Origin: a virus
Lineage: Duplodnaviria; Caudoviricetes
Reading direction: 5' to 3' (one strand)
IMG/VR virus record: IMGVR_UViG_3300030099_001381
Location: 1-59,308 of that record
Length of the DNA: 59,308 bases
In this document: positions 3,306-30,864 of the stretch, piece by piece
How positions within the stretch are numbered: the stretch's first letter is position 1
How the letters are laid out: the number at the start of each line of letters is the position of its first letter
Program-made: the position numbers and the translations under genes
The notes under the pieces: generated by a model
Database searches by the model: none
Told to the model about the DNA's origin: nothing
The model's input: the letters and a program-made list of their open reading frames with translations, nothing else

Positions 3306-3757
3306 TGAAAGAAAAAACAGATATAGTAAAAACCTTAGTTAAGCCTGAAGATATACCTCATATTTGGGTATTTGCAGAAAAACTTTTAAAGAAAAGTGCT
3401 AAGAGAAGTGAAGGAAGAACAAATACAAACGATTTGTTTGAAGAATGTATGGCAGGAACTAGTAGTTTATGGATAGTTTATGAACAAGAAAAGTTTCCTG
3501 AATTACTAGGATGTGGTATAACTCAAATAAATCACTATCCAACAGGTTTAAAGATGTTAAACATCGATCATGTAGCAGGAGTTCATCAAGAAAAATGGAC
3601 TAAAGGTGCATTAGATGTTTTAGAAAGATTTGCAAAAGATGTTAATTGTGATGGCATAGAGTCTTTAGGTAGACCTGGCTTTTGGAGTTGGATTAAAAAC
3701 GATAATTGGTCTAGAATGGCAGTAGCTTATCAAAAAAGGTTTGACAATGAGAAATAG
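3305..3757 (+). CDS. GNAT-fold protein of the ejection module (putative acetyltransferase)
   Basis: 150 aa with C-terminal FAKDVNCDGIESLGRPGFW, typical of GNAT-like proteins next to podovirus ejection genes. Confidence 0.55.
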   Translation: MKEKTDIVKTLVKPEDIPHIWVFAEKLLKKSAKRSEGRTNTNDLFEECMAGTSSLWIVYEQEKFPELLGCGITQINHYPTGLKMLNIDHVAGVHQEKWTKGALDVLERFAKDVNCDGIESLGRPGFWSWIKNDNWSRMAVAYQKRFDNEK

Positions 3758-5627: not shown

Positions 5628-8600
5628 ATGCCTCAATATAGAAGGTTACCAAATGGACAAATACTAGAGCTTCCTGATAACTTAACTCAAGAACAAATAG
5701 AAATTGTTAATGAAAGATACTTTACAGCACCTCAAAGAGGTATAGAAAGTTTACCAACTGAAGAAGATCAAGACACTTCTATTTTAGGTCAAATAGTAGA
5801 AACAGGTAAAGCAGTACCAAGAGGTTTTACATCAAGTTTAATCTCTTCAGGAGAAGGTATTGTATCTTTATTTGACAAAGGCAATGACAGTGAGACTTTA
5901 AAAAAGATTAGAAATGCAAGAAAGTATATTAATGAAGAATCTTTCTTAGCCGCAGATGATGCTTATAAAGATAAGTTTTTAACTAAGTTTGGTGAAGGTC
6001 TTGGTAGTTTTGCCACATTCGCTACACCTGGCGTAGCTTTAAAAGTTGCAGGAGCAGCAGGTAAAACAATAGGAACAGGAAGTAAGATTGCCGCAACAGC
6101 AACAGGTTTTGGTCTTGCAGGTACAGCAGGTGTATCTCAACAAGCTGATCAGATGGAAACATCTAAAGCAAAAGGTATAGATATATCTACAGGTAAAGAA
6201 GTTGCTTCTGAATTAGCAGGTCTTGGAATTGGTTTTACTGAAATGCTTCCTATATTTGGTCTTCTTAGCAGAATTCCTGGTGGTCAGGTTGCTTCAGATG
6301 TAGCTGAAAAACATATGGGAAAACTTCTTAATAAAGTTAGAACTCAAGGTGGTAAAGCAGGAAAAGAAGTTGTTAAAGAAGCAGGAAAAAAAGGAGTAGC
6401 TAGTACAGTAAAAAGAGCAAGTAGAACAGCAGGAGAAGAAGCTATTCAAGAAACTGTTGCAGGGTTAGCTCAAGAATTAGCAGGTAAAGGAATATATGAT
6501 TCAAGTATACAAGTAGGTGGCAGTGCTTGGGATGACTTTACAGTAGGTGGTGCTGTTGGTTTTGCTTCTGATTTACTTATTAACGCAATAATTCCTGGCA
6601 AACAAAAGAACAAAGTATCAGCATATAACAACGAACAAAAACATGAAGAAGAAACAGAAAGGGTTAATAAGTCTAATAATCCAAATGCAACTGAAGTAGA
6701 ATACGATGTAGTAGAAGTTGGAGGAAAGTCAGTAAATGAACCTTTAGGTTATCAAGTTGTTGAAAAAAATAGTGGTGTAGTTGTTAGCCCTAGATATAAA
6801 AGACCTGATGAAGCAATTAATCAAAAAACAATATTAGACAATCAAAAGAATGAAGCTAGTTTACTTCTTACAACCGAAAGTAACGCAAACGATCAAGGTA
6901 GATCAGGAGATGCTCAAGGAAAAGTAGCTATTATTCAAGCTAATTCTGATAACGCTAATAAAGTATCAAGGTCAGAGGCTCAAACTATTATTGTTCCTCA
7001 AGGAGCAACCGAGAAAAAAAGTATTAATGATCAATGGCAAAGTCATATTAATAAAAAAATAAAAGGTAAATCTAAAAAAGCTCAAAATAAAAGACAAAAA
7101 TATATTTATGGAAATAGTTTCACACCTGCTGAATTACTTGCTGATAAAATTATAACTAAAAAACAATATAACGAAACTATGCAGAACAAAATAGATGCCA
7201 TGAATATTAAAAAACCTAGTGCTTCTACTAGCGATTTAAATAAAACTTTAAAATCTAAAAACATAGATGAAAAAATAGGTTCAGGCTCTACAGGATCAAC
7301 TAACTTTCATAGCTATTTAAAAGCTCTAACAGGTAAAGATAGATGGACTAAGTTAAATGATACTGAAAAAAAATATGTAAACGCTAGAATAAAACAACTT
7401 CCTAAAGCTAACAAAAAAAGAAAGATGATTGATACAACAGCTAGTAAATATTCTCTAGAGAATATTAATACTGTGATTGAAACTCAAGATAATAACTATA
7501 ATGAAACAGGTGAAAATCAAGCATACACAATTGAAGAGATACAAAAGATTGCCTCAACTCCTAATAAAATAAATAAAGATGCTACTAATCAAATGGTAGA
7601 AAGACTTGTAGATAGTGGAAGACTTACTAAAATTAATTCAGGTAAAGATAAAGGTAAGTATAAATTCTTTAAAGACAGAGGCAAAGCTAATGCTATAGAG
7701 AATGAAACACAATTCCAAAAACAAAACCTTATGGACAGTGAAGCCTTCTTTGAAACACAGGCAGAGTTTAAAGCTAGATTATCAACTAAAAGAGATAAAG
7801 ATGGTAATGCATTATTAACTCCTACTGAAATAAATCAAATTGCAAAAAATAATTCTCAAAAGAAAGTACAAGATTTAGGTTTGGGAAATATATTAGCAGA
7901 TGAAGAACTTCTTGATTTTGATGGTGTAGTACAAGATAAAGAAGGAAGATATCGAAAAACAACAATACAAAAATCTACTACAGATGGTCTCAGCAAAAGA
8001 GAAAGATTAAGTAGAGCAGGTCTATCAGCAGAAGAAGGCTCTACAGTTAGAAAAGAAAAAAATAAAGCGAGACTTAAATCTTTAATAGAAAAAGAATTAA
8101 AGAAAAAAGGTTTAGATAAATTAGGCATTAGTGCAGCTGTTGGTAAAATTTTTGCTAAAAAAGATAAAACAGGTTTTTTTGATGTAAGTGAAGGAGCAGG
8201 TGTGTATATTCCTTCTTTAGGTCAGGTTGTTTTAAACTATGATACTTTTCTTGATATACTACCACAGAATTTAGACTCATTAAGTGACAAACAAATCCTC
8301 TCAAGAAAATTAATTCTTAAAGATAAAGACAATCAAAAAACTTTTGACACTACAATTGGTGGAACTATTAATCACGAGAGTATTCATGCCTTAAAAGATT
8401 TAAATTTATTTACTCAAAAAGAATGGGTTGTTCTTAGCAATTATGTAAAAAATACAAAAGACCCTAGATATAAAGGTCAAACTATTGAGATTGAAAATAA
8501 CAAAGGTCGTAGATTGTCAATAGAAAATCCAACTTATCTTGAAGTACAGCTACAACAAAACAAAAATTTGGATGCTGATGGCGTGATTGAAGAGGCAATA

Positions 8601-11600
8601 GCAGAAGCATTTGGTGTATACACAAGAAACCCAAATAAATTTAGTGGTATGCCTAGAAATCTTTTCCAAAGAATATTAGACACCCTTACATCTTTCTTCA
8701 CTGCTTTTGATTCATCAGGTCTTACAGCTAATGAAATATTTAGTTCAATACAAGAAGGTGATCTTACTAGTTCTGAAAGATTATCTGATGCAACTATGGA
8801 TACAAGACCAACAGAACTTACTGAAGAAGAAGAAATAAAGTATCAAAGATTTACACCAGCAGAAAGACAATTTATAGAAAAATTGGTTACGCTAAATGAT
8901 TTAGTAGATGGTGCACCAAATGGTGCTGTAAGATTGGAATCTATGGATGCAATAATAGATGCAATTCAAGAACAAGCTGATAGACCTAGAGTTAGAATGA
9001 CTATACTTCCTCGTAATGTTAGGGAAATAGTCAGTAGTTATTCAGGTTATATAAGATTTAATACTGATAATTCTATAAGAAAAAGAAGACAAAACAGATT
9101 TGGTAATGAGGTTAAGTATCAAAGAATTAATGCCGAAACACAACCTTTGCTAGATGTAGGATTGCCATACAGTGAAATAGGATATCAATTAGATGAGTGG
9201 TTTAAAGCTAATGGATCAGAGGCAGAGAACGCATCAATAGTAAAAGTAAATAATCTATTAAAGAAAACACCTACAAGAGAAACATTAAAACTAGATAAGA
9301 CATATCTTAATGACGAGGGTAAAGAAAAGACAGCATTTAAAAATTTTGCAGAACTAAAACAATCAGTACAAGAAATTTTAGACGAAGGTAATTTTGATCC
9401 TAATTGGTATTTAAAGGTTGGGCAAGAAGCCGAAGCAATAGTAGGTAAAGATAACATGGTAGAGTTTTCTGTGTTATGGGCAATAACATCAGCTTCAACA
9501 GACCCTGAATTAAATTTTCAAAATACTTTAGAAGTAATGTCTTTGGCTAGAGGTATCGATCCCAAAACAGGAAACAAAAAACATAAGGATGTTTATTTAG
9601 ACCCTAAAGGTTTTAAAAGAAGAGTAAAAGCATTGAAGATGCCAACAGGTTCTAAATACACAATAGATGAAATAGGTCAGTTTTATGAAGATGCTAATTG
9701 GACAACTAAGACAGATACTTCAATTAAAACACCTATCTATGGATTAACAACATTGATGGTTAAAGATGGTGAGTATATGCCATTTATGGTAGCCGATAGA
9801 TGGATGTATAGAACGATGGGTTTTACAGATGCTATAACAAAAAGAGCACCTAAAAGATCAGAGATACATTATGCTCAATATATGGTTAAAAAATTAGGTA
9901 GTGAACAATATACATACAACAATGGTAAAAATACTAGAAGTCTAAGACCTGATGAAATTCAAGCAGCATTGTGGTTTTCAATAAGAAATAATTCTGGCAA
10001 CAAGCAGAAAACACCAGGAACTATACCTTCTATTTTAGAAAAATCTAAAAAAACTATAGATTCTATTTCTTTTGCAAAAGAAAAAAACTATTGGAGTGAT
10101 GTAGGTAGTTTTATTAATAAAGATAATCTTGATCTTAACCCTTACGAAAGAATTACTTATGTAGGTGCAGGTAAATTTGGAACTTTACAAATGCCTAGAA
10201 TGAAAAAGCAAGAACAAGAAAGAGCATCAAAATTATTTATAGAAGTTAATCCTGGTAATGAAAGAGGTTATGGAAAATTAACAGACGAAAGTGGTAACTC
10301 AGTTGAACTTACTTATGAACAAGTAGATAGATTAACTGAAGAAGTTATGGACTCAATAACTGATGAAAATGGCAAAATTAATTTACTTAAAAAATTAGGC
10401 ATTCCTCATCAGGTAACTAAAACTCATGGTGCATATGAAGGTGGTGTAAGCCCTAGTTATGTTATTGATATATTAGGTCAAAGAATTAATAACACTTTGC
10501 TTTCTGATATAGCTAAAACATTAGGTGATGCATTAATGCAAGATGCTGTTGTAACAACTCAGACTAATCCTGATGGAAAAAGACCTGCTTCTCTTCTGTC
10601 AAAAAAAGTTAATGAAGGGCAAGAGTCAGCTTTTACAAATGAAGAAATAACATTAATCAACGATGCTATAAATTCTGAAGGTGGCATATCTAATTACTAT
10701 AATCCTAATCAAAGATTTCCATTAGGATTTACAGCGAAATATATAAACGATTCAATATTAATAATTGATGAGCAGTATAATAAATTTGATGACGGAGATT
10801 TTTCTGAAGAAAGTGAAGATACTAGAGTTAGAAGATTTGAAGAATTTCAAAGATATATTCAAGAAAGATTGTCAAACATTGACGGATTACCTGAAATTGA
10901 ATATAGTACAGCTTATACCGATGGGAATTATATAAATGACTATACAGAAGCGACTTCAGGAATTAGGTTACAAACAGACACCGAAGGATCATCCGATATA
11001 CAAAACGCCGCAGTCAGTGACCTTTACATCCCAGCGTGGAGATCGTTCACCAACTTCATCCAAAACGAAGGACTAACCACAGAAAATAATGTAGCACCTT
11101 ACGAGAATGCAAAAACAACTGCATTAACTAAAGCTATCTCACCTAATGAAGTTAAGTATCAAAGAGCTAGAGCTATATTACAAGAGGCTAACGACAATTC
11201 TAAACCTAATACCACACCAAGATTTAATTTAAAAACTACCTCTCCATTAGCACAGACTACAGTTTTAGAGCATATAGAGAACGAAGATAAAGTAGGTATA
11301 AATCCTCTTGATGATGAAATTAAATTTCAAAGAACAAAGAAAGCAGAAACTATTCTTGGTGATGATTTAAATGTTAAAACTGAAAACATACCATTTGGTC
11401 AAAGGGCAATTGAACAGTTAAGTAGTTTTGGAAGAAGTTTTAGATTTATTGTACTAGATAAACTTGAGGCTATTGAAAGATCAAGTGCAAACTTTGCAGA
11501 CAAAGCAGGACAAACTTTACTAGCTAGTACGAGTGCTATTGGTGCTGCTAGATTAGGAGAAAGAGTTAAAGGTATCATTCAAGAAACATTAACTCAAGGT

Positions 11601-14075
11601 GGAGTGCCTTATTATGATTCAGCTTCTGTATTTGAAGGTGGTACTCAAAGAATAAATAAAACTTTTGTAGATAGAAATGGAAAAACACAGAGTGTTCATT
11701 TATTAAAAGCGATTGCTAATAATGTAGATGCTGAAGGTAATAGTTTAGAAAGTCAATTTCAAGAGTATGCAATATACAGAAGAATGAAAGCATTAACTAG
11801 CGATGAAAGAAAGAATAGTGAATTTGCTAAAAAATTAAAAGAAGAAAACAATGCTCTGTATAAAAAAATAGTAAATGATAAACAAAATCTTTTTGAACAA
11901 TTTGAACAAGACTATCCTCAAACAGTAGACCTATGGGAACAGTGGCAGTCATACAATGATTCTATACTAGAATACGCTAGAGATGCAGGTATTCTAAGTG
12001 ATGAATTAGCAGAGTATTATCGTCAGACAAGTGACTACATACCTTTTTATAAAGCACATGAAGATTTAAAATCAGGTAAATTTGATTTGTTCGGTGAAGA
12101 TGCTTTAGGCAATACAAGAAAAGGTGTTGAAAAAATAAATGATAAAGTTCTTACAAGAAAGTTAGATCAAAGTTTTGCACCAACAGAACTTGTTCCTGCT
12201 TACGAAGCTATGCTTGGTAATACATTATCTATTATGCAAGTTAGTGCTAAAAACATAACTAGACAAAGATTGGCTAGAGAACAAAGATTTTTAGGAACAG
12301 GTACAAATATTGAGTCTTCTCAGATATCAGATGTCGGACAAGAAAATGTATTCATGTACAAAGAAAATGGTCAAGAACAGTATATGCAAGTAAATGATAA
12401 GGCATTGGTTCAAGCATTAGAGTCATATAATGCTGATGGAACTATGTCAGCTTTACTTAATATAGTTGGATTTCCTTCTACTGTTTTAAGAGAATTTGTT
12501 ACAAGAGACCCTGGCTTTATGGCAGCTAACCTTCTTCGTGATACTATTTCTGCTTACGCTACATCAGGTGCTAACTTTATTCCTATCATTGACAGTGTAA
12601 AAGGATTAGCTACTGGTCTTGATAATATTAATAGATTTGGAATTGTTTCAGGTTATGACCTTTCAAGAGATGCCCTAAGTTTAAATAAATTTATTGATAA
12701 AGAATTAAAAAAGTTAGGTGTAGAACAAAATGGTGGTGTTCTTATGAAGCAATTCTTCACGCCAATGGGTATATGGGATAGATTAGGAGAGGCTACTACT
12801 CGTTCAGATGCGGCAACAAGACAAGCTGTTTACAAAAAAGTATTTGAAGCGACAGGAGATCAGTATGAAGCCGCATATCAAGCGTTAGAAGTTATAAACT
12901 TTAACAGAAGAGGAGCAAATCCTTATGTTAGAATAATAACAACTGCTATACCTTTCTTAAATGCTAGAATGCAAGGTCTTGATGTATTGTACAGAGCAGC
13001 ATCATCAGACTTGTACACAAGAAGAACAGGAAAACAATCAGAAAGAAGATACGGAGCAATGCAATCTCGTTTTGGAAAAGGAGATGACGAACTTAAAAAT
13101 CAAATGATAAGTACCTTCCTTGGAAGAATGGCATTGTTATCAGGTCTTACAGCAATATATTGGTTAATGGTAAGTGATGACGAAGATTATAAAAATTTAA
13201 CACCTGAACAAAAAGATAATAATTTCTTTATTCCAATTGCAGAAAATTATTCAATTAAAATTCCAATTGCTTTTGAAGTAGGTGTATTAACTAAAGTGAT
13301 ACCTGAAAGAACTCTTGAGTTAACATTTGGAGATGACAGTCTTAGAGATACAAAAGAAAGTGTATTTAGAAGTATAACTCAAACATTAAAGATTGATCCT
13401 TTAAACTTTCAAATAATAGCACCTTTGAGAGAAGCTATAGAAAATAAGAATAAATTTACAGGAAGACCTATTGAAAGTTATTTCATGGAAAAGTTAGAGC
13501 CTGGTGCTCGATCTATGGATTATACTAATGAACTTCTAAGAGTAATTGGAGAGGCTCTTAATATATCACCTATGAAACTAGAACACATTGCAAAAGGTTA
13601 TACAGGAACTATAGGAGGTTATATATTAGCCTTAACTGATAATGTAACTAGAACAATTACAGGAACTCCAAAAGTTCCATTTAGACCTTCTTCAGTGCCA
13701 TTTGGTAGATTTGTACAGGATGATTTAAGAAGAAGAGGTCTACAAAATCAATATTATGATCTACAACAAGAGGTAGATAAGGTTGTAGCAACAATCAATA
13801 GTCTTAAAAAGAAAGATAGATGGGATAAAGTAAAAGCATATAGGTATGCAAAGAAAGACATCATAAGTATTAAAAGTGAAATGAATCAAATACGAAAGTA
13901 TATGAAGAATTACAGAAACAAAAGAGATAGAATATCAAGAGATGAAACTCTTTCAAATGAAGTAAGAAAAAAATTACTTGACGAATTAGAATGGGAAAGA
14001 GATCAAAAATTAATGGTAATACCATTGCTAAGAGAAAGAGCAAACTTACCTTTTATTGATAAATTTAGTTTTTAA
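5628..14075 (+). CDS. Giant polyvalent virion protein (zincin-like HExxH peptidase, HhH/glycosylase-like domain, C-terminal LPD38-like domain)
   Basis: 2815 aa; HESIH...EEAIAE zincin motif (8373-8387); C-terminal PFLNARMQGLD / KIPIAFEVG / ENKNKFTGRPI signatures resemble LPD38; RBS AGGAGG upstream. Confidence 0.75.
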   Translation: MPQYRRLPNGQILELPDNLTQEQIEIVNERYFTAPQRGIESLPTEEDQDTSILGQIVETGKAVPRGFTSSLISSGEGIVSLFDKGNDSETLKKIRNARKYINEESFLAADDAYKDKFLTKFGEGLGSFATFATPGVALKVAGAAGKTIGTGSKIAATATGFGLAGTAGVSQQADQMETSKAKGIDISTGKEVASELAGLGIGFTEMLPIFGLLSRIPGGQVASDVAEKHMGKLLNKVRTQGGKAGKEVVKEAGKKGVASTVKRASRTAGEEAIQETVAGLAQELAGKGIYDSSIQVGGSAWDDFTVGGAVGFASDLLINAIIPGKQKNKVSAYNNEQKHEEETERVNKSNNPNATEVEYDVVEVGGKSVNEPLGYQVVEKNSGVVVSPRYKRPDEAINQKTILDNQKNEASLLLTTESNANDQGRSGDAQGKVAIIQANSDNANKVSRSEAQTIIVPQGATEKKSINDQWQSHINKKIKGKSKKAQNKRQKYIYGNSFTPAELLADKIITKKQYNETMQNKIDAMNIKKPSASTSDLNKTLKSKNIDEKIGSGSTGSTNFHSYLKALTGKDRWTKLNDTEKKYVNARIKQLPKANKKRKMIDTTASKYSLENINTVIETQDNNYNETGENQAYTIEEIQKIASTPNKINKDATNQMVERLVDSGRLTKINSGKDKGKYKFFKDRGKANAIENETQFQKQNLMDSEAFFETQAEFKARLSTKRDKDGNALLTPTEINQIAKNNSQKKVQDLGLGNILADEELLDFDGVVQDKEGRYRKTTIQKSTTDGLSKRERLSRAGLSAEEGSTVRKEKNKARLKSLIEKELKKKGLDKLGISAAVGKIFAKKDKTGFFDVSEGAGVYIPSLGQVVLNYDTFLDILPQNLDSLSDKQILSRKLILKDKDNQKTFDTTIGGTINHESIHALKDLNLFTQKEWVVLSNYVKNTKDPRYKGQTIEIENNKGRRLSIENPTYLEVQLQQNKNLDADGVIEEAIAEAFGVYTRNPNKFSGMPRNLFQRILDTLTSFFTAFDSSGLTANEIFSSIQEGDLTSSERLSDATMDTRPTELTEEEEIKYQRFTPAERQFIEKLVTLNDLVDGAPNGAVRLESMDAIIDAIQEQADRPRVRMTILPRNVREIVSSYSGYIRFNTDNSIRKRRQNRFGNEVKYQRINAETQPLLDVGLPYSEIGYQLDEWFKANGSEAENASIVKVNNLLKKTPTRETLKLDKTYLNDEGKEKTAFKNFAELKQSVQEILDEGNFDPNWYLKVGQEAEAIVGKDNMVEFSVLWAITSASTDPELNFQNTLEVMSLARGIDPKTGNKKHKDVYLDPKGFKRRVKALKMPTGSKYTIDEIGQFYEDANWTTKTDTSIKTPIYGLTTLMVKDGEYMPFMVADRWMYRTMGFTDAITKRAPKRSEIHYAQYMVKKLGSEQYTYNNGKNTRSLRPDEIQAALWFSIRNNSGNKQKTPGTIPSILEKSKKTIDSISFAKEKNYWSDVGSFINKDNLDLNPYERITYVGAGKFGTLQMPRMKKQEQERASKLFIEVNPGNERGYGKLTDESGNSVELTYEQVDRLTEEVMDSITDENGKINLLKKLGIPHQVTKTHGAYEGGVSPSYVIDILGQRINNTLLSDIAKTLGDALMQDAVVTTQTNPDGKRPASLLSKKVNEGQESAFTNEEITLINDAINSEGGISNYYNPNQRFPLGFTAKYINDSILIIDEQYNKFDDGDFSEESEDTRVRRFEEFQRYIQERLSNIDGLPEIEYSTAYTDGNYINDYTEATSGIRLQTDTEGSSDIQNAAVSDLYIPAWRSFTNFIQNEGLTTENNVAPYENAKTTALTKAISPNEVKYQRARAILQEANDNSKPNTTPRFNLKTTSPLAQTTVLEHIENEDKVGINPLDDEIKFQRTKKAETILGDDLNVKTENIPFGQRAIEQLSSFGRSFRFIVLDKLEAIERSSANFADKAGQTLLASTSAIGAARLGERVKGIIQETLTQGGVPYYDSASVFEGGTQRINKTFVDRNGKTQSVHLLKAIANNVDAEGNSLESQFQEYAIYRRMKALTSDERKNSEFAKKLKEENNALYKKIVNDKQNLFEQFEQDYPQTVDLWEQWQSYNDSILEYARDAGILSDELAEYYRQTSDYIPFYKAHEDLKSGKFDLFGEDALGNTRKGVEKINDKVLTRKLDQSFAPTELVPAYEAMLGNTLSIMQVSAKNITRQRLAREQRFLGTGTNIESSQISDVGQENVFMYKENGQEQYMQVNDKALVQALESYNADGTMSALLNIVGFPSTVLREFVTRDPGFMAANLLRDTISAYATSGANFIPIIDSVKGLATGLDNINRFGIVSGYDLSRDALSLNKFIDKELKKLGVEQNGGVLMKQFFTPMGIWDRLGEATTRSDAATRQAVYKKVFEATGDQYEAAYQALEVINFNRRGANPYVRIITTAIPFLNARMQGLDVLYRAASSDLYTRRTGKQSERRYGAMQSRFGKGDDELKNQMISTFLGRMALLSGLTAIYWLMVSDDEDYKNLTPEQKDNNFFIPIAENYSIKIPIAFEVGVLTKVIPERTLELTFGDDSLRDTKESVFRSITQTLKIDPLNFQIIAPLREAIENKNKFTGRPIESYFMEKLEPGARSMDYTNELLRVIGEALNISPMKLEHIAKGYTGTIGGYILALTDNVTRTITGTPKVPFRPSSVPFGRFVQDDLRRRGLQNQYYDLQQEVDKVVATINSLKKKDRWDKVKAYRYAKKDIISIKSEMNQIRKYMKNYRNKRDRISRDETLSNEVRKKLLDELEWERDQKLMVIPLLRERANLPFIDKFSF

Positions 14076-22486: not shown

Positions 22487-22519
22487 AAAAAAAAACACCC
22501 CACTCCGAAAAGTGGGGTG
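22487..22519 (-). terminator. Rho-independent terminator at the end of the leftward early operon
   Basis: 9-bp stem CACCCCACT/AGTGGGGTG with UUCG-containing loop, then 9 T. Confidence 0.85.
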
Positions 22520-22889: not shown

Positions 22890-22919
22890 AATTTTTCTCC
22901 CTTGTTGGTTAGGCAAAAT

Positions 22920-22931
22920 TACCTAGACGAT
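22920..22931 (-). other. Putative remote hammerhead substrate site 5 (AUCGUC/UAGGUA)
   Basis: Exact 12-mer, complementary to the ribozyme arms; predicted cut between 22926 and 22925. Confidence 0.65.
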
Positions 22932-23263
22932 TAATCTAAATCAAAATCCATTTCAAAATCTATTTCATTATCAGGAACTGAAGAACTAAATGGAAATCCT
23001 GACAGCACTGCTATTTGCAAAACTTTATCTCTCATTTCTTGTAATTCTTTTTCTTCTCCATAAAGAAAAACTATACAACAAACCATCATCCAAAAAGAAT
23101 CTTTCTCTACGCAATCATTGTTGTATGTAAGAACTATTTCTTTCTCTGTAAAATTTAATGAAAGAGTATCACCTAATTGATGAATAATTTTAACTTTGTT
23201 GTCATCATCTTCCTGAAGTTTATTTCCACTAGGAAATTCTAAAATTTTTACCATAATCATCAA
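22931..23263 (-). CDS. Hypothetical early protein
   Basis: 110-aa acidic ORF. Confidence 0.6.
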   Translation of the reverse strand: MMIMVKILEFPSGNKLQEDDDNKVKIIHQLGDTLSLNFTEKEIVLTYNNDCVEKDSFWMMVCCIVFLYGEEKELQEMRDKVLQIAVLSGFPFSSSVPDNEIDFEMDFDLD

Positions 23264-23422
23264 TATAGCTCTTTAAAATAGCAAACACAACAAAATCGAC
23301 CTCTCAAAATGCTCTCTAAACAAAAGTAGCATCTTATCCCATATAGTTTTATATGAAAAAAAAATGCTACTGTATGAGCCTTAAAATCGGTCTTTATTTA
23401 ATAAACAGCAGAAAATAGCCAT

Positions 23423-23575
23423 TTATTCATCGTACATTTTAATGACATTTTCATCTTCAAGATGCTTGTTATTAATTAGATAATGAATTTTATTTAATCT
23501 AATTCTTTCCCTGACTTCTTTTAGTTTACCAATATACCATATAGATTTACTCTCTTTATCTTCATAGATTTTCAT
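23423..23575 (-). CDS. Small hypothetical early protein (50 aa, not in ORF track)
   Basis: MKIYEDKESKSIWYIG...; ATGA overlap with the upstream gene, GGGAG RBS. Confidence 0.5.
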   Translation of the reverse strand: MKIYEDKESKSIWYIGKLKEVRERIRLNKIHYLINNKHLEDENVIKMYDE

Positions 23576-23832
23576 ATTGTTATCTCCCTAGATTTATTTT
23601 TTAAAAACTCTTCATGAGTTTTTATTGATCTTTCTGCATACCAATCTCTTTCATATTTGGTTCTGTAATAATAAATATGATCTTGAGAAAGGTCTCCATT
23701 AAATCTTCCTGAATTTAATAGAGTAAGAAGATCATCTAAATCTATGATCCTCTTCTCCATTTTGTATTCATCCCAAACATAAATCTTTATAGATTGTGTC
23801 TTGGGAACTTTTAAAAATGGCATATCTACCAT
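23572..23832 (-). CDS. Hypothetical early protein
   Basis: 86 aa, GGAGGAG RBS. Confidence 0.65.
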   Translation of the reverse strand: MVDMPFLKVPKTQSIKIYVWDEYKMEKRIIDLDDLLTLLNSGRFNGDLSQDHIYYYRTKYERDWYAERSIKTHEEFLKNKSREITI

Positions 23833-23843
23833 TTACTCCTCCC

Positions 23844-24233
23844 TTAATTTACTGCTTTATTTTTCCTTGCATCAAACTCATTAGATAATTTTCTTCTTTG
23901 AGATGGGGTCATCTTCACCACATCATCTAATGTTATATTACCAACCAAATCTTTTTCATGTTGCATGGCATTAAAATACAACTCTCTTTCTTTTGGTGAT
24001 AACTTTTTTACAAAAATTAAATTAGCAATAAAATCATAAACACACTCTGATATTGCTTGTTCAGGTGCGTCACACTTTTTTAATTTAGTAACCATATCAG
24101 CAATATAATTTACATCTTCTTGATCTAAATTTATTTCACCAACATCAAGTACAACTCTTACACCACCTTGTTCTAATATTTCAAAGTCACTCATGCGTCT
24201 TTTATCTTTATTCTTTGACATACTGTCCTCCAT
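23844..24233 (-). CDS. Hypothetical early protein
   Basis: 129-aa ORF; the second Met with GGAGG RBS may be the true start. Confidence 0.65.
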   Translation of the reverse strand: MEDSMSKNKDKRRMSDFEILEQGGVRVVLDVGEINLDQEDVNYIADMVTKLKKCDAPEQAISECVYDFIANLIFVKKLSPKERELYFNAMQHEKDLVGNITLDDVVKMTPSQRRKLSNEFDARKNKAVN

Positions 24234-24348
24234 AATAAATTATTTAGGGGAAATCCCTATGGGAAATCCCTATGGGAATTCCCTGAACTCTCTTGCCTAA
24301 CTACTATCATAATACTACTATCAGAGTAATTCCTTTGCAAAATAATTC

Positions 24349-24360
24349 TACCTAGACGAT
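24349..24360 (-). other. Putative remote hammerhead substrate site 4
   Basis: Exact ATCGTCTAGGTA; predicted cut between 24355 and 24354. Confidence 0.6.
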
Positions 24361-24615
24361 CAATTTTATCAGCTCGAAAAGCAGGGGGATGTAAAACATA
24401 AGTATTCCCTAGAGAATATTTAATATTACACCCCCCCTTGGGGATTCAGAATTTTAAGTCCAACACTTATAATGGATACCATCATCTGCATGACGACCAC
24501 AAAATTCACAGTAGCCATCTTCATCGTAATGGTTCATTGATTTTTCATACTCATGCTGTTCAGCAAGATAATCTTGCCTAGTCATTTCGTATTCTTTATC
24601 AATCATTTTTTCCTC

Positions 24616-24852
24616 CTAATTAAATCTCTTAACAACAATAAATCTATCGCCATCAGATACTTCATAAATTGGAACATCTTCTTCTGCATTAATTATTGCC
24701 TGAAACATTTCATCTACAGTTATGGTAAAACCATCTTTATTCGCTGATAAAAAGTCTTCAACTGAGCATTCAAACTCTTGTTGATCTGTATCAGGTGATA
24801 TCCCAATCATTCTGAAATCAAATTTACTTTCTTCTAGACTGACCATTTGCAT
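24616..24852 (-). CDS. Hypothetical early protein
   Basis: 78 aa, AGGAGG RBS. Confidence 0.65.
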   Translation of the reverse strand: MQMVSLEESKFDFRMIGISPDTDQQEFECSVEDFLSANKDGFTITVDEMFQAIINAEEDVPIYEVSDGDRFIVVKRFN

Positions 24853-25135
24853 ATACCTCCTCTAAATGTCTTATCAACATATCAAGACTTGACTTAACAG
24901 CATTAACTTCATCAAGACTACTGTCTAAGTTATGTTTTCTGTCTAATACAATATCGTATGCGATATTTTTTAAATTTTCAATTGGAACTTTTATTATCAT
25001 TTGTTTCCTCCTTTTCTAAATTGTCTAGTAATTCGTGTACAGCATCACTTAATCTTTGAGGGATAACTGTAACATTTTCTTTTTCATTATTATCCCATGT
25101 AACAGTAATGTTCCAATCTACTATTTCTTTTTTAG

Positions 25136-25423
25136 TCATATGCTTTCCTCCCTTGGGTTTAATTCTTTATTCACTTCAGATAAAAATTTATCTACACCAT
25201 TGGCTACATCTGTGGGCAATTCAAAATGTTCATACTTACTTTCATGACCATCTCCCCATGTAACATTAAGAGTGTAAATTGCACTATAATCTTTTTCCCA
25301 AACATATTCATCATTTCCAAAATGATAAACTATTTTTGTAGGAACACCTCTTGACTCTAATTCTTCTGTCAATGCATCTCTACTTATTTCATCTTCAGGA
25401 TAGTGTGTATATGTATTACTCAT
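25136..25423 (-). CDS. Hypothetical early protein
   Basis: 95 aa, AGGAGG RBS, ATGA coupling. Confidence 0.65.
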   Translation of the reverse strand: MSNTYTHYPEDEISRDALTEELESRGVPTKIVYHFGNDEYVWEKDYSAIYTLNVTWGDGHESKYEHFELPTDVANGVDKFLSEVNKELNPREESI

Positions 25424-25647
25424 TTGCTTTCCTCCTTAGAAAATAAATATTTAGCATATTTTATACTAATGTTTTTAATATCACCACTAACTAAGTCTTG
25501 AACAACAAAAGGTTTTTTCCAACCTCCTGATCTGAAATCAACAAGGACATATCTTCTTGCTCCTGTCATTGCGATTTTCTTTTCATCAAGACCAAGTCCT
25601 GTAGTCATAAACTTTAATGAACTAATTTTACTCATGTGTTTCTCCAT
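25420..25647 (-). CDS. Hypothetical early protein
   Basis: 75-aa ORF coupled to the downstream gene. Confidence 0.6.
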   Translation of the reverse strand: MEKHMSKISSLKFMTTGLGLDEKKIAMTGARRYVLVDFRSGGWKKPFVVQDLVSGDIKNISIKYAKYLFSKEESK

Positions 25648-25666
25648 CGATTTGTTAAGGCAAAAT

Positions 25667-25678
25667 TACCTAGACGAT
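25667..25678 (-). other. Putative remote hammerhead substrate site 3
   Basis: Exact ATCGTCTAGGTA, preceded by hairpin 25687-25720; predicted cut between 25673 and 25672. Confidence 0.65.
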
Positions 25679-25726
25679 TTTGTTATTAGGAAGAGGGGAT
25701 CAGCGATCCCCTCTCTCCTATATTTT

Positions 25727-27091
25727 CTATTGATAGACATCAACCTCAACAACCTCTGCCCACTCAGGTGCATAGTCTGTTGTGCCTGTTGTTGCCCACA
25801 CCACAGGATAATCGACATCATCTCTTCTTGAAGAGACATAGCCATCTGTAAAGTAGATAGCGACATCAGGTATCTCAGTCTCATCATGATCAGTCTGATC
25901 TATAAGATTGAGGAAAGGGTCAACTTCTGTACCACCACCTGACATCTCTCTCATGACGATATCTTCTTCTTTACATTTGAAGACATCCCATTTGCTCTCA
26001 TAAAGATCATCATCACCATTGACTGTCATCACTGTTGAATTGATGTAGCAAATCTTGATGGTTTGAATGTTAGGAAACTCATCAGTGATTGCTTGAATAT
26101 TCTTTACGAATATCTGTCTCTCTTCAAGACTGACACTACCTGAGATATCGATGCCAATTGCAAGAGTACCACTTTCCATCGGTTTCTTAGATGGTAGGTA
26201 GATGTCTTGAGCAAGGTATCTTCTTTCATATCTTCGGTATGATCTTTCGTCACCCTCAAAGAATGCAGTAAGATGCTGACTGATAACATCAGTCCAAGAG
26301 ATTGGATTTTGTTGAGCAGACTTTCTTGCATTGCTCATCAACCCTACACCACTTCCATCACCATTAGCTTTCTCTATCAGATCAGCTTGGATGATTGCAT
26401 CAGTGATGCGTTCATCTTCTTCTTGGATAGCTTGGTCAATATCAGATTGTGATACACCATCTTCACCAACAGGAAGATCAAGAACTTCACCACCAAATCC
26501 ATCGGCACTTAACTCTTCGCCATCTTGATCATCATCGCCTGATTGCTGACCACCTTGAGGTTTGAAGTATTTAGTTTTGCCATCCTCATCTTTTTCTTTT
26601 TTGAGTAATGCAAAAACTTTCTCAGCACTCATTTGACCATACTGTTTGTCGTAAAGAGCATTCATGTTTCTGAGCATATCAAGTGTGCGATAGCCATAAT
26701 CATTTTCTAGAATTCTGACTAACTCATAATTGATTACATAATCAGTAGCAATGTTCCAACCTTCAGGGTCTCTCTCACCTCTCCTGATATGATGTTTCCA
26801 CATGACATGAAGACCTTCATGCAACAGGATAGCAAACAGTCTGAACCTTGTTTCATCAAGACCAACTTCGTTATACATATCCTGTATGCCTGATGGCGAA
26901 TATAAAACAACCTTGCCATCTGTTGCCATCATGCCAACCGAGTCATCAGCAACTAATTGTAATGGAAGGAAAATTGAAGTGTAACCAAAGTAGTTATCAG
27001 TTATTCTTCTCTTTGCTCTTACCATTTCTTTCTCAATATCAATTGCTGAGATATTAATATTCCCTAGGGAATTTTTATTTAATGCAGTCAT
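25727..27091 (-). CDS. Metallopeptidase-VWA protein (DUF2201-like)
   Basis: MATDG, HEGLH zincin motif, WNIATDYVIN, MIDAS DISGS, GGGT and YFTDG. Confidence 0.85.
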   Translation of the reverse strand: MTALNKNSLGNINISAIDIEKEMVRAKRRITDNYFGYTSIFLPLQLVADDSVGMMATDGKVVLYSPSGIQDMYNEVGLDETRFRLFAILLHEGLHVMWKHHIRRGERDPEGWNIATDYVINYELVRILENDYGYRTLDMLRNMNALYDKQYGQMSAEKVFALLKKEKDEDGKTKYFKPQGGQQSGDDDQDGEELSADGFGGEVLDLPVGEDGVSQSDIDQAIQEEDERITDAIIQADLIEKANGDGSGVGLMSNARKSAQQNPISWTDVISQHLTAFFEGDERSYRRYERRYLAQDIYLPSKKPMESGTLAIGIDISGSVSLEERQIFVKNIQAITDEFPNIQTIKICYINSTVMTVNGDDDLYESKWDVFKCKEEDIVMREMSGGGTEVDPFLNLIDQTDHDETEIPDVAIYFTDGYVSSRRDDVDYPVVWATTGTTDYAPEWAEVVEVDVYQ

Positions 27092-27092
27092 A

Positions 27093-28133
27093 TTAAACTC
27101 CTAATAGTGATTTAGATTTAGATAATTTCTTTGCAGTATCTTCTCGCAATTCATTATCCTCTCTTAGTGACTCAGTAGTAACACCTTCAAGACTATCTTT
27201 AGCAATGCTAATTGCGTTAGCAATTTCTTCGCTATTAACAAATGCATTGTTACGATCTTCAGCAATGCTGATTGTCTTTTTAAGATTAGCAACTAAAGTG
27301 TTTCTGAAAGGCGATGCTTTTTTATTTGTTGCATCATACTTAGCAAGACTATCAACTGCTGAGTCGATGCTCTCGGTAAGAGCAGTAACAGTATCATTGA
27401 TAACTTTGCTTTTGAATTGTTCCTCTCGTTGCACTTGTTGTTGTCTTATCCTAGCAAACAACTGAGCATGGTTTGGATTATCTCTCCTGCTATAAAAATC
27501 TCTATGACTTGGATTGTCAGTAAAAACTGTACGATCTAAATCAACAGTAGGAATAGCAGAGACATGATCATAAAGATGAAACAGTCCTTGTTTCCAAGGC
27601 TCATCACCCACATAGAAAATCTTCATCTTGCCGTAGTTATATTGAAGACTTTCTTTTTCTTCTTGGGTAAGAGGTCTATCAAGTAAATCATCAACAGGTG
27701 GATAGTCATTCTCGTTGTATGCGTTACCTAACTCAACTCTCTGATCTTCTTTAGCCTTCTGATATTTCTTAACGAAAGGGTTAAGAAAACCATCAACCAT
27801 ATCTGACTTGAAAGCATCCCATTCTTTTTCAACTAACTCTGCATGTTGATTAAGAACAAAATGCCATTGACCTTCATGAGGTATCATCCATTCGGATATG
27901 TCCAAACGAAATCTACGAACTCTATTCTTCATGCTCTTGATCAATTCTTTGTCGATCAATTGCTTTCTGACAGAGAACACATCCTGATTGCCATTGACAC
28001 CATTTGAAACATGAACAGATAATTCTTTGTCCAACTTTTCAAATGTAGGTATTTTAACTTCAAATCTTTTCAGAGTACCTAACTCTTCAAGACCCATAAC
28101 TGAACTAGCAATGTCGATATTATTGTTCTGCAT
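27093..28133 (-). CDS. Conserved partner of the AAA/VWA module (DUF3150-like)
   Basis: ELGNAYNENDYP motif; start moved to ATG 28133 because of the AAGGAGG RBS at 28139-28145. Confidence 0.6.
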   Translation of the reverse strand: MQNNNIDIASSVMGLEELGTLKRFEVKIPTFEKLDKELSVHVSNGVNGNQDVFSVRKQLIDKELIKSMKNRVRRFRLDISEWMIPHEGQWHFVLNQHAELVEKEWDAFKSDMVDGFLNPFVKKYQKAKEDQRVELGNAYNENDYPPVDDLLDRPLTQEEKESLQYNYGKMKIFYVGDEPWKQGLFHLYDHVSAIPTVDLDRTVFTDNPSHRDFYSRRDNPNHAQLFARIRQQQVQREEQFKSKVINDTVTALTESIDSAVDSLAKYDATNKKASPFRNTLVANLKKTISIAEDRNNAFVNSEEIANAISIAKDSLEGVTTESLREDNELREDTAKKLSKSKSLLGV

Positions 28134-28143
28134 TAGAACCTCC

Positions 28144-29235
28144 TTATATTTTGTTGCGTAAAGTAAATGATGAGTAAGTTTTTGTTTCCATAAAATTAGG
28201 ATTTTTAGAAACAATCAACTTAGTAGTGAACACCTCGTACTCAGGTGAATTAAATCTTGCTAAGTAAGTAAGAGCATTTTCAAAATCTTGCTCACTCTTT
28301 ACCATCTTAGTAAGAGCAGATGATACTGCATATCTGATGTTAGATTGAGATGCATCAGGAACATCAACTGTATCAGGTGAAGAAAGTATATCCTGAACAT
28401 TTGGTGCATCTTTTACCAAATCTAAAAAGGCTACGAAACTTTCACCAACAGTATCACCAACACAACCTTTGTATAAGGCTCGTTGTGATTTTTTATTGAG
28501 AGGTAAATTTTTAGAATGCAACCTCGCCAATTCAGTAATACTTCTTGGTGATGCACCCTTTTCATGCTTACCAACTTCTTCATAGTTAGATAAACTTTTT
28601 GGCTCAAGTTTGATAAAGGAAATAACATCCTCATCAACATCATTATCCATCGCCCAATCTATCCAAGTTTGTGCATCGCTTTCAACCTGACCCCAATATG
28701 AGATACGATCTTTCAGTGTGTTCAATGTTCTTTGAACTCCTGCATTGTCGCCAACCCTATTTGTTGCCATCACGATGTGCCATCCCTTGGGTAATTCGTA
28801 CCCATTGAATTTTCTTGCTCTCGTGATCTGCATCAAAAACTTCTGCACATCCTGATCACCTTGACCCATCTCATCGATCATCAGAATTCCACATCCTTCT
28901 TGAGGAAGTAATTCTGAGAATGCATAATTTAATTTAGTCTTGTCTGCATTCGGTGTTGGTATCGCAAGATCAGATGCTGTTGTGATACTCGCAACAATTG
29001 TTGCAAATCCAAACTCATCTTTTGATGGGTTTGATGTTTCGGTAAACTTGAGATTTAGATTTTCTGCTACATCTTTTGCAACATCGATCAGGCTCTCAGT
29101 CTTACCAATACCTGCACCACCTGATATCAGTAAAACTGATTTCATTGTTTGATTGGGGTCTTCATTCCAATCTGATAGAATTATTTTTTTGATGGTGTCG
29201 ATACTTTCTTTGATAGTCTGTGTTGATTTACTCAT
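28144..29235 (-). CDS. MoxR-like AAA+ ATPase
   Basis: Walker A GGAGIGKT, Walker B LMIDE, sensor MATNR, SPRS; ATG 29235 has a GGAG RBS. Confidence 0.88.
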   Translation of the reverse strand: MSKSTQTIKESIDTIKKIILSDWNEDPNQTMKSVLLISGGAGIGKTESLIDVAKDVAENLNLKFTETSNPSKDEFGFATIVASITTASDLAIPTPNADKTKLNYAFSELLPQEGCGILMIDEMGQGDQDVQKFLMQITRARKFNGYELPKGWHIVMATNRVGDNAGVQRTLNTLKDRISYWGQVESDAQTWIDWAMDNDVDEDVISFIKLEPKSLSNYEEVGKHEKGASPRSITELARLHSKNLPLNKKSQRALYKGCVGDTVGESFVAFLDLVKDAPNVQDILSSPDTVDVPDASQSNIRYAVSSALTKMVKSEQDFENALTYLARFNSPEYEVFTTKLIVSKNPNFMETKTYSSFTLRNKI

Positions 29236-29319
29236 GGTAAAATCTCCGTAAAAAAAGATTATTCGTTTTATTAGTTTTTGAATAATCGGTGATGGCTCTG
29301 ACCACACCATGTGATCAAA

Positions 29320-29331
29320 TACCTAGACGAT
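29320..29331 (-). other. Putative remote hammerhead substrate site 2
   Basis: Exact ATCGTCTAGGTA, preceded by hairpin 29337-29359; predicted cut between 29326 and 29325. Confidence 0.65.
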
Positions 29332-29453
29332 CCTAAGAGAGAGGAATTAATCCTCTCTCATATTGATTTTAATTTGGTCTATTGCAAACCAAATAGAAAA
29401 ACCAAGGGGTATTAATACAAAAAATATAAAAGATATTATTAAAAAATAATCCA

Positions 29454-29714
29454 TTATTTATCCTCCTCTTGAATAATTCCTTGAACAGCTTTTAAGAATT
29501 TATCTCTCTCTTCAGGATGAATATCTGCATCAACATCGAAGGATTCTAATTCCTCAAATAACTCATCATTAGTAAAACCTAATTTCATTTCGTCATTATC
29601 CATATGAATATCTGCATCAACCCAACACCAATTAACAGAACCATCTTCGTTTATGTTTTCTTGATTGTTTAGAGCCTTGATAATCAAATCTTTTATAGTA
29701 ATATTTTTAGTCAT
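29454..29714 (-). CDS. Hypothetical early protein
   Basis: 86 aa, AAGGA RBS; internal duplication VDADIH. Confidence 0.65.
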   Translation of the reverse strand: MTKNITIKDLIIKALNNQENINEDGSVNWCWVDADIHMDNDEMKLGFTNDELFEELESFDVDADIHPEERDKFLKAVQGIIQEEDK

Positions 29715-29743
29715 ATCATTTTCCTTTTGTTAGTAGGTAGAAT

Positions 29744-29755
29744 TACCTAGACGAT
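29744..29755 (-). other. Putative remote hammerhead substrate site 1
   Basis: Exact ATCGTCTAGGTA, preceded by hairpin 29763-29783; predicted cut between 29750 and 29749. Confidence 0.65.
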
Positions 29756-29805
29756 ATCTGAAAGGGGGAAGTAAATTCCCCCTAGCATTTAGAGCATTTT
29801 CTGCA

Positions 29806-30408
29806 TTAGATTTGGATATCTTCGAAACCAAAATCAGCTACAACTTTTGCTTTGCCTGTATGATTATTTACGATGATGTCTCCAACACTCAGTGAAGCAA
29901 ATGCTCTTGTGATACTTGGCTCATCATCCTCACCTCTGATCTTTTCGATCATGCTGTAATTACAAATGACATCTTCATAGATATCTTCACCATCTGCATC
30001 CAAGAAAGTATGAGTATTTAAGATTTCAAAAAGATCATCAAAAAATAGTTTACTCATTCCTTTTCTTATTCCTTCGTCAGTTTTTACATCAACAACTTTT
30101 TTCATTCTTGATTTCAAATACTCAGGTTTCCATACTTCTTCAACATCTCTTCTTCTTCCGATGCATCCCATCATAAATGGGAAATCATCTTCCATCGTAG
30201 CAGGTCTTCCATTCATGTATAAATCGTCTCTGTAATCAGGGTCTATTTGGTAGATAGAAAAATCATTGATAAAACTTTCACCATCGCTTTTGATGTTGGT
30301 TAGATATGCAACAGCATCATCTGTATTCAGATAGCATTGAGGTGCAGTTTCATTTGATTTGATGTAGATATGATTTGGGTTTCTTTCTTGATATTTTTTC
30401 ATAGACAT
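29806..30408 (-). CDS. Hypothetical first early protein (C-terminal SLSVGD motif, YodL-like)
   Basis: 200 aa acidic, AAGGAG RBS, ends SLSVGDIIV...GFEDI. Confidence 0.65.
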   Translation of the reverse strand: MSMKKYQERNPNHIYIKSNETAPQCYLNTDDAVAYLTNIKSDGESFINDFSIYQIDPDYRDDLYMNGRPATMEDDFPFMMGCIGRRRDVEEVWKPEYLKSRMKKVVDVKTDEGIRKGMSKLFFDDLFEILNTHTFLDADGEDIYEDVICNYSMIEKIRGEDDEPSITRAFASLSVGDIIVNNHTGKAKVVADFGFEDIQI

Positions 30409-30441
30409 GATTGTCTCCTTGTTTTGTTAGTAGGCAAAATC

Positions 30442-30613
30442 ACCTAGACCATTTGAAAAATCAGGTGGACACAACCTCACCGATCATGCCCACCGATTTT
30501 CTAATCGTTTCGATCACTTAACCCTTGCGTGGAAACCACGATCCTTACAGGGCATAACTACAACTTTGTTGATTAACTTGTGAAGCAGATCATCATCAGT
30601 AGGCTCTTCACAA
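30442..30613 (-). ncRNA. Type I hammerhead ribozyme with extended stems II and III
   Basis: GCCUA(30604-30600)-CUGAUGA(30599-30593)-U-GAUC...GAUC-GAAA(30511-30508)-CGAUU...AAUG-GUC/UAGGU(30449-30442); stems I, II and III all form; 8-bp UUGUGAAG/CUUCACAA pairing links the 5' flank to the stem II insert. Confidence 0.8.
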
Positions 30614-30834
30614 TTCGCAGGGTACTGCTTATTAGATTCCCTATGGCACACCTCTTCGATGATTTAATGATCGGTTCGCACAGCTATCGATAGATCAAGC
30701 AAACTTCCTCTCAGTACCACCCCTTGCATCTCAATTCTTCCGATGACTAACTATGTTGGGTTCTAATCAGATTGGGATATTTAATCTGATCATCATAAAA
30801 GCCTAAAATGTCCTCCTCTTGGTTAACTTCGTAG

Positions 30835-30864
30835 AAGTTACAGGACGAATGCACCTTTTGTCAA
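30835..30864 (-). promoter_or_regulatory. Candidate sigma70 early promoter
   Basis: TTGACA-18 nt-TAACTT with AT-rich upstream element, pointing into the ribozyme-containing leader. Confidence 0.5.

Follow-up and report, generated by a model that had tools for sequence, protein, structure and literature searches.

A hammerhead-like core in a phage leader RNA matches a motif repeated at the junctions of its early operon

The phage record IMGVR_UViG_3300030099_001381 (Duplodnaviria; Caudoviricetes), analysed here over its entire 59,308 bp (the window), carries a minus-strand early operon whose untranslated leader of ~380 nt contains the two core strands of a hammerhead ribozyme. The arms next to these strands match a 12-nt motif, AUCGUC/UAGGUA, which recurs at gene junctions further down the operon. 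We put at roughly 60% the probability that this hammerhead-type core pairs with the motif, cuts after the GUC and thereby splits the early transcript at as many as six junctions. The reading of the dispersed motif as the cognate substrate of a single leader core is partly supported by the sequence comparisons below, from which we also infer catalysis, the cut positions, the mode of action (on its own transcript or as a separate RNA) and what the accompanying hairpins do.

The motif ATCGTCTAGGTA, read on the minus strand, occurs in five exact copies on that strand and in none on the plus strand, and a search of the whole record confined it to the operon headed by the leader. Allowing up to one mismatch, 0.11 copies of the 12-mer are expected, and five copies were reached in none of 100 shuffles. 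A variant sixth copy, ATGGTCTAGGTG, with two changes, directly follows the leader. Every site occupies an intergenic gap before a start codon, with the motif ~30 nt before the start codons, and the remote sites are 0.7–7.6 kb from the enzyme strand. All of them lie between a conserved TTGACA and a terminator-like hairpin. The operon boundaries and the sites are as follows, all on the minus strand.

30835–30864, minus strand: promoter-like element with TTGACA (30859–30864), an 18-nt spacer and TAACTT (30835–30840); putative promoter
30441–30452, minus strand: leader-proximal (cis) site AUGGUC/UAGGUG; predicted cut 30447/30446; G-G clash at 15.3/16.3
29744–29755, minus strand: remote site 1, before the 86-aa open reading frame (ORF; 29454–29714); predicted cut 29750/29749
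29320–29331, minus strand: remote site 2, before the ATPase/373-aa/DUF2201 block; predicted cut 29326/29325; followed by the covarying hairpin 29299–29317
25667–25678, minus strand: remote site 3, before the 75-aa ORF (25420–25647) and a run of small ORFs; predicted cut 25673/25672
24349–24360, minus strand: remote site 4; predicted cut 24355/24354
22920–22931, minus strand: remote site 5, before the last small ORFs; predicted cut 22926/22925
22496–22519, minus strand: terminator-like hairpin, then a T run; operon end

The enzyme strand lies in the 3′ part of the leader. Between its two core strands, CTGATGA is followed by a single T (30592), GATC (30588–30591), a 72-nt insert, a second GATC (30512–30515) and GAAA. 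The leader features, again on the minus strand, are these.

30614–30834, minus strand: leader 5′ domain, ORF-free and structured; hairpins with G-U and compensatory changes
30600–30604, minus strand: enzyme arm I, GCCUA (GCCTA in the DNA); pairs with UAGGU just 3′ of the predicted cut; ACCUA in L132/L133
30593–30599, minus strand: core strand CUGAUGA (C3–A9); identical in all five leaders compared and inside the 11-nt block CCTACTGATGA common with L132
30512–30592, minus strand: helix II domain; extra U at 30592; GAUC-u-GCUU (30583–30591) is predicted to pair with AAGU-GAUC (30512–30519), closing the junction with two inner hairpins
30508–30511, minus strand: core strand GAAA (G12–A15.1); inside the 10-nt block TCGAAACGAT common with L132
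30501–30507, minus strand: enzyme arm III, CGAUUAG (CGATTAG in the DNA); pairs with AUCG just 5′ of the UC at the cut
30455–30494, minus strand: long GC-rich hairpin and U run separating arm III from the proximal site; the 60 nt before that site fold at −25.2 kcal/mol; either the loop hairpin of helix III or an intrinsic-terminator-like element

In the predicted pairing, stem I has 5 bp at all five remote sites and stem III has 5, 6, 6, 8 and 8 bp, counts that include the A15.1–U16.1 pair and allow G-U. At the leader-proximal site only 2 contiguous bp of stem III form, with the G-G clash. The match between arms and motif is non-random: a motif-fitting enzyme strand arose once in a total of 300 dinucleotide shuffles, with an analytic expectation of 0.007, that is, in ~0.003–0.007 of shuffled genomes. 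The window holds 45 bare CTGANGA...GAAA pairs, of which only the one in the leader has arms that fit the motif (G-U allowed), so the remote sites are without a core of their own. These results bear out much of the original prediction, which was made from the letters of the window and had reported five identical 12-mers on one strand at gene boundaries upstream of start codons, between a candidate promoter and a terminator, each coreless and each able to pair with both arms of one leader ribozyme: the copies are exact and lie where it had placed them, as do GCCUA, CUGAUGA, GAAA and CGAUUAG, and the boundaries, both arms of pairing and the lack of local cores were all recovered.

Relatives of the phage were collected by ATPase-guided searches, which yielded close (L122, L123/L126 and L125) and more distant (L127–L130, L132 and L133) contigs with 24 distinct sites together. 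The consensus of these sites is nAUCGUCUAGGU(A/G), the exceptions being AUGGUC (three sites, all leader-proximal and in window-type leaders), AUUGUC, UUUCGUC and AUCGUA (one each). Position 16.1 is U at all 24 sites, and N17 is C in 23 and A in one, never G; the 16.2–15.2 pair, the other core-adjacent pairs and a stem I of 5 bp are likewise intact throughout. Stem III has 4–8 bp at 21 of the 24 sites, and the other three are the leader-proximal sites of the window type with the G-G clash at 15.3/16.3. The motif is invariant where its flanks vary freely among relatives, and the sequence upstream of it is not conserved.

The leader itself is a conserved structured RNA in which several hairpins show compensatory or G-U changes. 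In L132 and L133, whose ATPases are 77–82% identical to that of the window, the 3′ domain of the leader has been rebuilt, yet CCTACTGATGA (11 nt), TCGAAACGAT (10 nt) and the next hairpin are kept in order; an A-U pair replaces the G-U pair of arm I there. A 72-nt block of the 5′ domain (30720–30791, minus strand) is identical in L132, while the neighbouring ATPase is only 77% identical, and this block is, by sequence comparison, an RNA domain under very strong constraint. At the 5′ border, AGTTGAC is kept in all four leaders that reach that far in the alignment, and TAACTT forms the start of a small covarying hairpin, AACTTC/GAAGTT here and AACTC/GAGTT in L132/L133. The outer part of arm III varies (CGATATA in L122/L123, CGATAAA in L132). 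In all four leader types (window, L122, L123 and L132) the own arm III pairs with the genome's sites at least as well as foreign arms do, the mean stem III with own and foreign arms being 4.83 vs 3.83/3.67, 4.33 vs 3.00/3.67, 3.50 vs 3.25 and 5.00 vs 4.67/4.33 in the four types. This own-arm preference is a weak signal in the favourable direction.

Some leaders are mosaic, L133 combining a window-type 5′ half with an L132-type 3′ half, and one metagenome contig (run X15) switches leader type just after GAAACGAT (break at 30504). Searches with the leader pattern gave no match in genome contigs and only relatives already known in viral contigs, and a 14-mer scan of viral contigs gave at least 116 single matches, all unrelated. 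In L134, whose ATPase is 28% identical, no analogous ribozyme–site system was apparent; its positions 1659–4182 hold a different, ribosome-site-centred repeat, AAyCCAAAnTAAGGAGGACAA, before early genes. A T-box-like GGGUGGUAC in the window's leader was set aside because it is not conserved in relatives. UGCCUACUAACAA resembles the rrn boxA consensus at 9 of 13 positions, a likeness that was set aside as well.

The same layout recurs, with different arms and motifs, in three other phage systems that are unrelated in sequence, each having one leader enzyme strand and 5–11 coreless sites downstream on the same strand. Each system's motif matches only its own leader arms, the motifs share no consensus beyond GUC, and N17 is C at all sites of all three. 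The first, L136, is a 61-kb record with no match to the window's TerL or ATPase. Its leader reads AGUAAUG-CUGACGA-GACCU...AGGUC-GAAA-CGUUGG, with an arm I of 7 nt, followed by a hairpin and the site CGUC/UAUUACU; of its seven sites, the six past the cis site lie on the same strand within 3.5 kb, and these remote sites, CCAACGUC, form 6–7 bp with arm III against 4 bp at the cis site. The second comprises L137 and L138, which share GGUUAU-CUGAAGA...GAAA-CCAA and have 11 and 5 GGUC/AUAACC sites, respectively. The third, the L140 family (GCTATA, CTGATGA, CACT), has a compact canonical type I hammerhead and comprises seven contigs out of ten pattern matches, the other three being without a cognate site. 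Its 4-bp helix II appears in four Watson–Crick variants across the seven contigs, L140 itself has eight sites, with 5 bp at the remote sites against 3 bp at the cis site, and in this family, as in the window, arm I is copied locally past the cut sites. Remote sites thus pair better than the cis site in the window, L136 and L140. The covariation between arms and motif that had been proposed as a check was seen as a weak tendency within the family and as matching codes in the three unrelated systems.

The surroundings of the sites are also structured, as in these two examples.

29337–29359, minus strand: GC-rich hairpin upstream of a site; predicted fold
22910–22925, minus strand: local 3′ hairpin UAGGUA-AUUU-UGCCUA, beginning at the first base past the predicted cut and including a copy of arm I

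Four of the six sites have a strong GC hairpin, with no clear U tract, 5–13 nt upstream; predicted energies upstream of these four range from −16.7 to −25.2 kcal/mol, and are −5.4 and −3.1 kcal/mol upstream of the 24349 and 22920 sites. The 12-mer itself is single-stranded in predictions of site anatomy. Hairpins equivalent to that at 22910–22925 occur at 25657–25672, 29734–29749 and 30431–30446 (minus strand), so that four sites are followed by a 6-bp hairpin UAGGUr-AUUy-yrCCUA (−3.6 to −4.6 kcal/mol) whose 3′ strand copies arm I. Its variants differ solely by G-U/A-U exchanges, because of which the structures near the sites are assigned to the minus-strand RNA. The ATPase site is instead followed by a different hairpin (29299–29317), with true compensatory changes among relatives. 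After the site hairpins come an A/C-rich stretch, a Shine-Dalgarno sequence and the start codon.

A mechanism can be proposed from this anatomy. The leader would serve as the enzyme strand (arm I, CUGAUGA, an enlarged helix II domain, GAAA and arm III) and AUCGUC/UAGGUA as the substrate half, and a site pairing with both arms would form a three-way junction with the GUC at the scissile position. Cutting after the C would leave a 2′,3′-cyclic phosphate and a 5′-OH and would resolve the polycistronic message into the leader and at most six coding segments. At four of the six sites the pieces upstream of the cut would have their ends near the GC hairpins, which may shield these new 3′ ends, and four downstream pieces would begin with the arm-I-copy hairpin, which could displace the ribozyme and shield the new 5′ end. 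The weak proximal site would keep arm III free for the stronger remote sites.

A bolder version, which we hold only tentatively and rate somewhat below an even chance, makes the leader a free-standing, multiple-turnover RNA endonuclease and the first natural trans-acting small ribozyme. It would be freed by the terminator-like hairpin or by self-cleavage at the weakened proximal site, which would also free arm III, and would cut every cognate junction of the early message, the arm-I-copy hairpins expelling the enzyme and capping the 5′ ends. The window would then belong to a recurrent, so far undescribed class whose members, in marine phages unrelated to one another, each use a separate code of arm and motif.

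Several observations weigh against cleavage by the leader core, beginning with its class assignment. Of the features of the hammerhead class (Rfam clan CL00010), we found the C3–A9 strand, the GAA with the A15.1–U16.1 pair and an NUH triplet, and predicted helices I and III with the substrate, but no match to a curated covariance model: the leader matched no Rfam hammerhead model at the gathering score or at E ≤ 10 in 9.5 kb or in 451 nt. This control is weak, as the canonical hammerhead of the contig L143 scored 20.6 bits against a gathering score of 48.5. No Rfam hammerhead was found at gathering in L140, L137 or L143, and none at E ≤ 1 in L136. The L143 element (11491–11571, minus strand) is a textbook-looking open-helix-I hammerhead with a covarying helix II, below gathering, and phage leader hammerheads of open-helix layout are likely under-counted by standard annotation. 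The CUGANGA and GAAA strands of the full hammerhead core claimed for the leader are both there, but the core is non-canonical, with an extra U, a putative helix II that has no closing helix in L132/L133, and no Rfam match.

Helix II raises further doubts. To lie flush with the core it needs the extra U after A9. GAUC-u-GCUU/AAGU-GAUC forms when the insert is folded alone, and the inner hairpins of the domain covary among leaders. The closing helix is invariant in window-type leaders, so covariation is uninformative there, and L132/L133 lack it, with three serial hairpins between the two core strands instead. A natural hammerhead is reported to have an extra residue between A9 and G10.1, and a U there raised the trans-cleavage rate 3–4-fold (PMC3705267). 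Three serial hairpins with almost no linkers and no closing helix II stand between CUGANGA and GAAA in both L132 (~1017–1079) and L137 (2595–2688), which belong to unrelated systems, and likewise in L138; the first of the three shows one compensatory change between L137 and L138. This insert may be a four-way-junction variant of the hammerhead and, if active, would place an unusual junction directly at the core.

Competing folds and marginal energies add to these points. RNAalifold prefers a hairpin, TTGTGAAG/CTTCACAA, that crosses helix II and is supported by one compensatory change, and in full-length minimum-free-energy folds of window-type leaders arm I is tied up in a helix with TAGGCTTTT and its CCU has a probability of 0.0 of being unpaired; full-length folds show arm I in a helix with UAGGCUUUU. 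The arms are short, with duplex energies of −4.1 and −3.0 kcal/mol, and UAGGUA can pair instead within the local hairpin. Constrained to the hammerhead form, the complex has about the stability of the two RNAs apart and lies 5.5 to 9.7 kcal/mol above the unconstrained dimer, and the leader–site duplex is no better than with shuffled sites (−11.6 vs a mean of −12.6 kcal/mol). Because nearest-neighbour models ignore the tertiary energy of the core, these folding energies neither exclude nor support activity. The per-genome chance of 0.003–0.007 is not negligible over the ~250,000 windows scanned, and a search of sequencing runs for near-identical DNA returned marine-metagenome DNA runs and no RNA run. 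The idea of one ribozyme for many sites gains from the match, the conservation, the NUH rule and the recurrence in three systems, and loses from the non-canonical core and the competing folds.

The strongest alternative, though an unlikely one, is that the coreless sites are relics of half-hammerheads or cassette-junction repeats spread by recombination, with at most the proximal site being cut. Gene cassettes are indeed reshuffled among relatives with the breakpoint at the motif; in L123, for instance, a later site precedes the 200-aa gene that stands after the leader in the window. At four sites the downstream sequence, GCCTACTAACAA (30419–30436 and 29722–29739, minus strand; near 13760 in L123), resembles the enzyme's GCCTACTGATGA as a decayed core would, which would fit an origin of the sites by decay of type III hammerheads or, conversely, of the enzyme from a site. 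Short arms and marginal energetics would fit relics as well. Neutral relics should decay, however, and the motif is invariant amid freely varying flanks; moreover, the arms pair better with the remote sites than with the proximal one in the window, L136 and L140, and in none of the four leader types does a foreign arm III suit the sites better than the own one.

Slightly less probable is a motif read by a protein or an RNA polymerase, serving as a phage-specific promoter, as an antitermination site of the ops or nut kind or as the recognition site of a sequence-specific RNase, with a coincidental complementarity to the leader. An oriented 12-nt motif ~30 nt before starts and after hairpins resembles a terminator–promoter cassette, and the chance estimate of 0.003–0.007 is not zero. 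A 14-bp palindrome, ATTCYCTAGRGAAT, found genome-wide (24404, 30896 and elsewhere, and in L126, L127, L130 and L132) and often just upstream of the GC hairpin and motif, is identical at 11 of 14 positions to the motif taken together with the two bases after it, and a link between the palindrome and the motif module is possible. Against a promoter, no pair of −35 and −10 hexamers 16–18 nt apart keeps a fixed position relative to the motif, a sigma-70 scan gave 33 sites vs 41.6 expected in shuffles, and only one of the six motif copies overlaps a sigma-70 match (24372–24345). Inspection by eye for sigma-70, extended −10, ECF-type CGTC, sigma-54 and Bacteroidetes TAnnTTTG promoters found none that fits six sites at fixed spacing. 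Pfam or PHROGs searches with 37 ORFs revealed no gene for an RNA polymerase or sigma factor, and a PDB sequence search with the 2815-aa protein gave no relative and no polymerase. The restriction of the motif to the leader-headed operon also speaks against such a reader. Because arms and motifs covary between systems, the motifs of the other three being alike only in GUC and each fitting its own leader arms, promoter and protein-site readings are hard to reconcile with the data.

Improbable, and more so than either of these, is a leader that acts as a regulatory antisense RNA, pairing with the motif without cutting it and modulating translation, stability or termination in the manner of P4 CI and P1 C4. 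One block, GCCUACUGAUGAU, is imperfectly reverse-complementary to the motif over its full length, forming 5 + 6 bp around a 2-nt bulge, and lies in a 20-nt loop of the window-type fold, and the terminator-like hairpin after the enzyme could free the leader RNA. The duplex energy is nonetheless no better than that of shuffled sites, as given above, and the searches of the window gave no Rfam C4-type RNA. Simple pairing also leaves unexplained why CUGANGA and GAAA stand exactly at the arm junctions in four unrelated systems and why the triplet is always GUC or GUA. A reading of the sites as RNase P minihelices fails, since the second hairpin class starts 3 nt past the motif.

The window is a complete genome of ~33% GC (CheckV completeness 100%), and Megablast against phage records gave no match. 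Four DNA-contig runs contained strain variants and recombinants of it and no new leader type. The early block, which runs on the minus strand from 30.9 to 22.5 kb, encodes small ORFs without assigned function, a MoxR-like ATPase (phrog_1297), a 373-aa ORF and a DUF2201 metallopeptidase/VWA protein; the rest of the record encodes a primase/helicase, terminase, portal, DNA methyltransferase, Sak annealing protein and the 2815-aa polyvalent protein (5628–14075, plus strand), which has an LPD38 domain. A 905-aa ORF (588–3305, plus strand) is of low complexity and rich in Gly, Ala and Pro, with no family match and no D.D.D by regular-expression search. In the ATPase ORF (28144–29310), the annotatable ATG falls in the loop of the covarying hairpin 29299–29317 (minus strand), homology to relatives begins only at residue 17–19, and L127 has no ATG at the annotated start; the true start probably lies further downstream.

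Engineered trans-cleaving hammerheads consist of arm I, CUGANGA, helix II, GAAA and an arm III that binds an NUH site on another RNA. The window leader has the same arm and core architecture, but the engineered molecules are man-made and usually have 6–10-nt arms, whereas the pairing here is 5 bp plus 5–8 bp within a natural RNA of ~380 nt. The early polycistronic mRNA of T7 is cut by RNase III at intergenic sites into stable mRNAs bounded by hairpins; a host protein and double-stranded hairpins act there, in contrast to a 12-nt single-stranded motif that matches an RNA here. In P4 (CI) and P1/P7 (C4), the operon's own leader RNA pairs with repeated short targets downstream on the same transcript, as the window leader might, but those RNAs exert their effect purely by pairing, after maturation by RNase P, and have no hammerhead core and no NUH-centred two-arm geometry such as the window has.

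Among published systems, engineered trans-cleaving hammerheads are the subject of two reports (PMC3064770, PMC1199579). Perreault et al. 2011 (PMC3088659) describe clustered complete hammerheads that flank prophage and phage genes, propose that these cut long transcripts into single-gene or operon mRNAs, and report for HF1/HF2 a hammerhead 13 nt before a start codon, close to whose cut a 5′ end has been mapped. Those elements resemble the window in having a hammerhead core in phage early or intergenic RNA with the same proposed role, and differ in providing a complete ribozyme per cut site, where the window has one enzyme strand and six substrate halves. The discontinuous hammerhead of mammalian CLEC2 3′ UTRs (untranslated regions; Martick et al. 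2008, via the review PMC6765202) likewise has its enzyme and substrate strands far apart on one transcript, with no local loop closing helix I or III; unlike in the window, it is one enzyme with one substrate in a eukaryotic mRNA, with no substrate array and no phage context. The same 2019 review (PMC6765202) describes trans-cleaving genomic ribozymes as still sought.

A full-text search of the openly accessible literature returned no paper in which a single enzyme strand acts on multiple natural sites that lack a core, in agreement with the original prediction, which knew of no natural phage example. To our knowledge, natural small nucleolytic ribozymes are known only as self-cleaving. The window appears to represent, in rather derived form, a version of a known ribozyme class that has apparently not been described. 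If the proposed mechanism holds, this would be the first natural hammerhead used as a sequence-specific endoribonuclease for many sites, and the rules of its natural design, namely a weak site in cis, stronger sites further away and hairpins that release the product, could be reused in RNA engineering. For the phages themselves it would give hammerheads a concrete job, the RNA-only punctuation of early operons.

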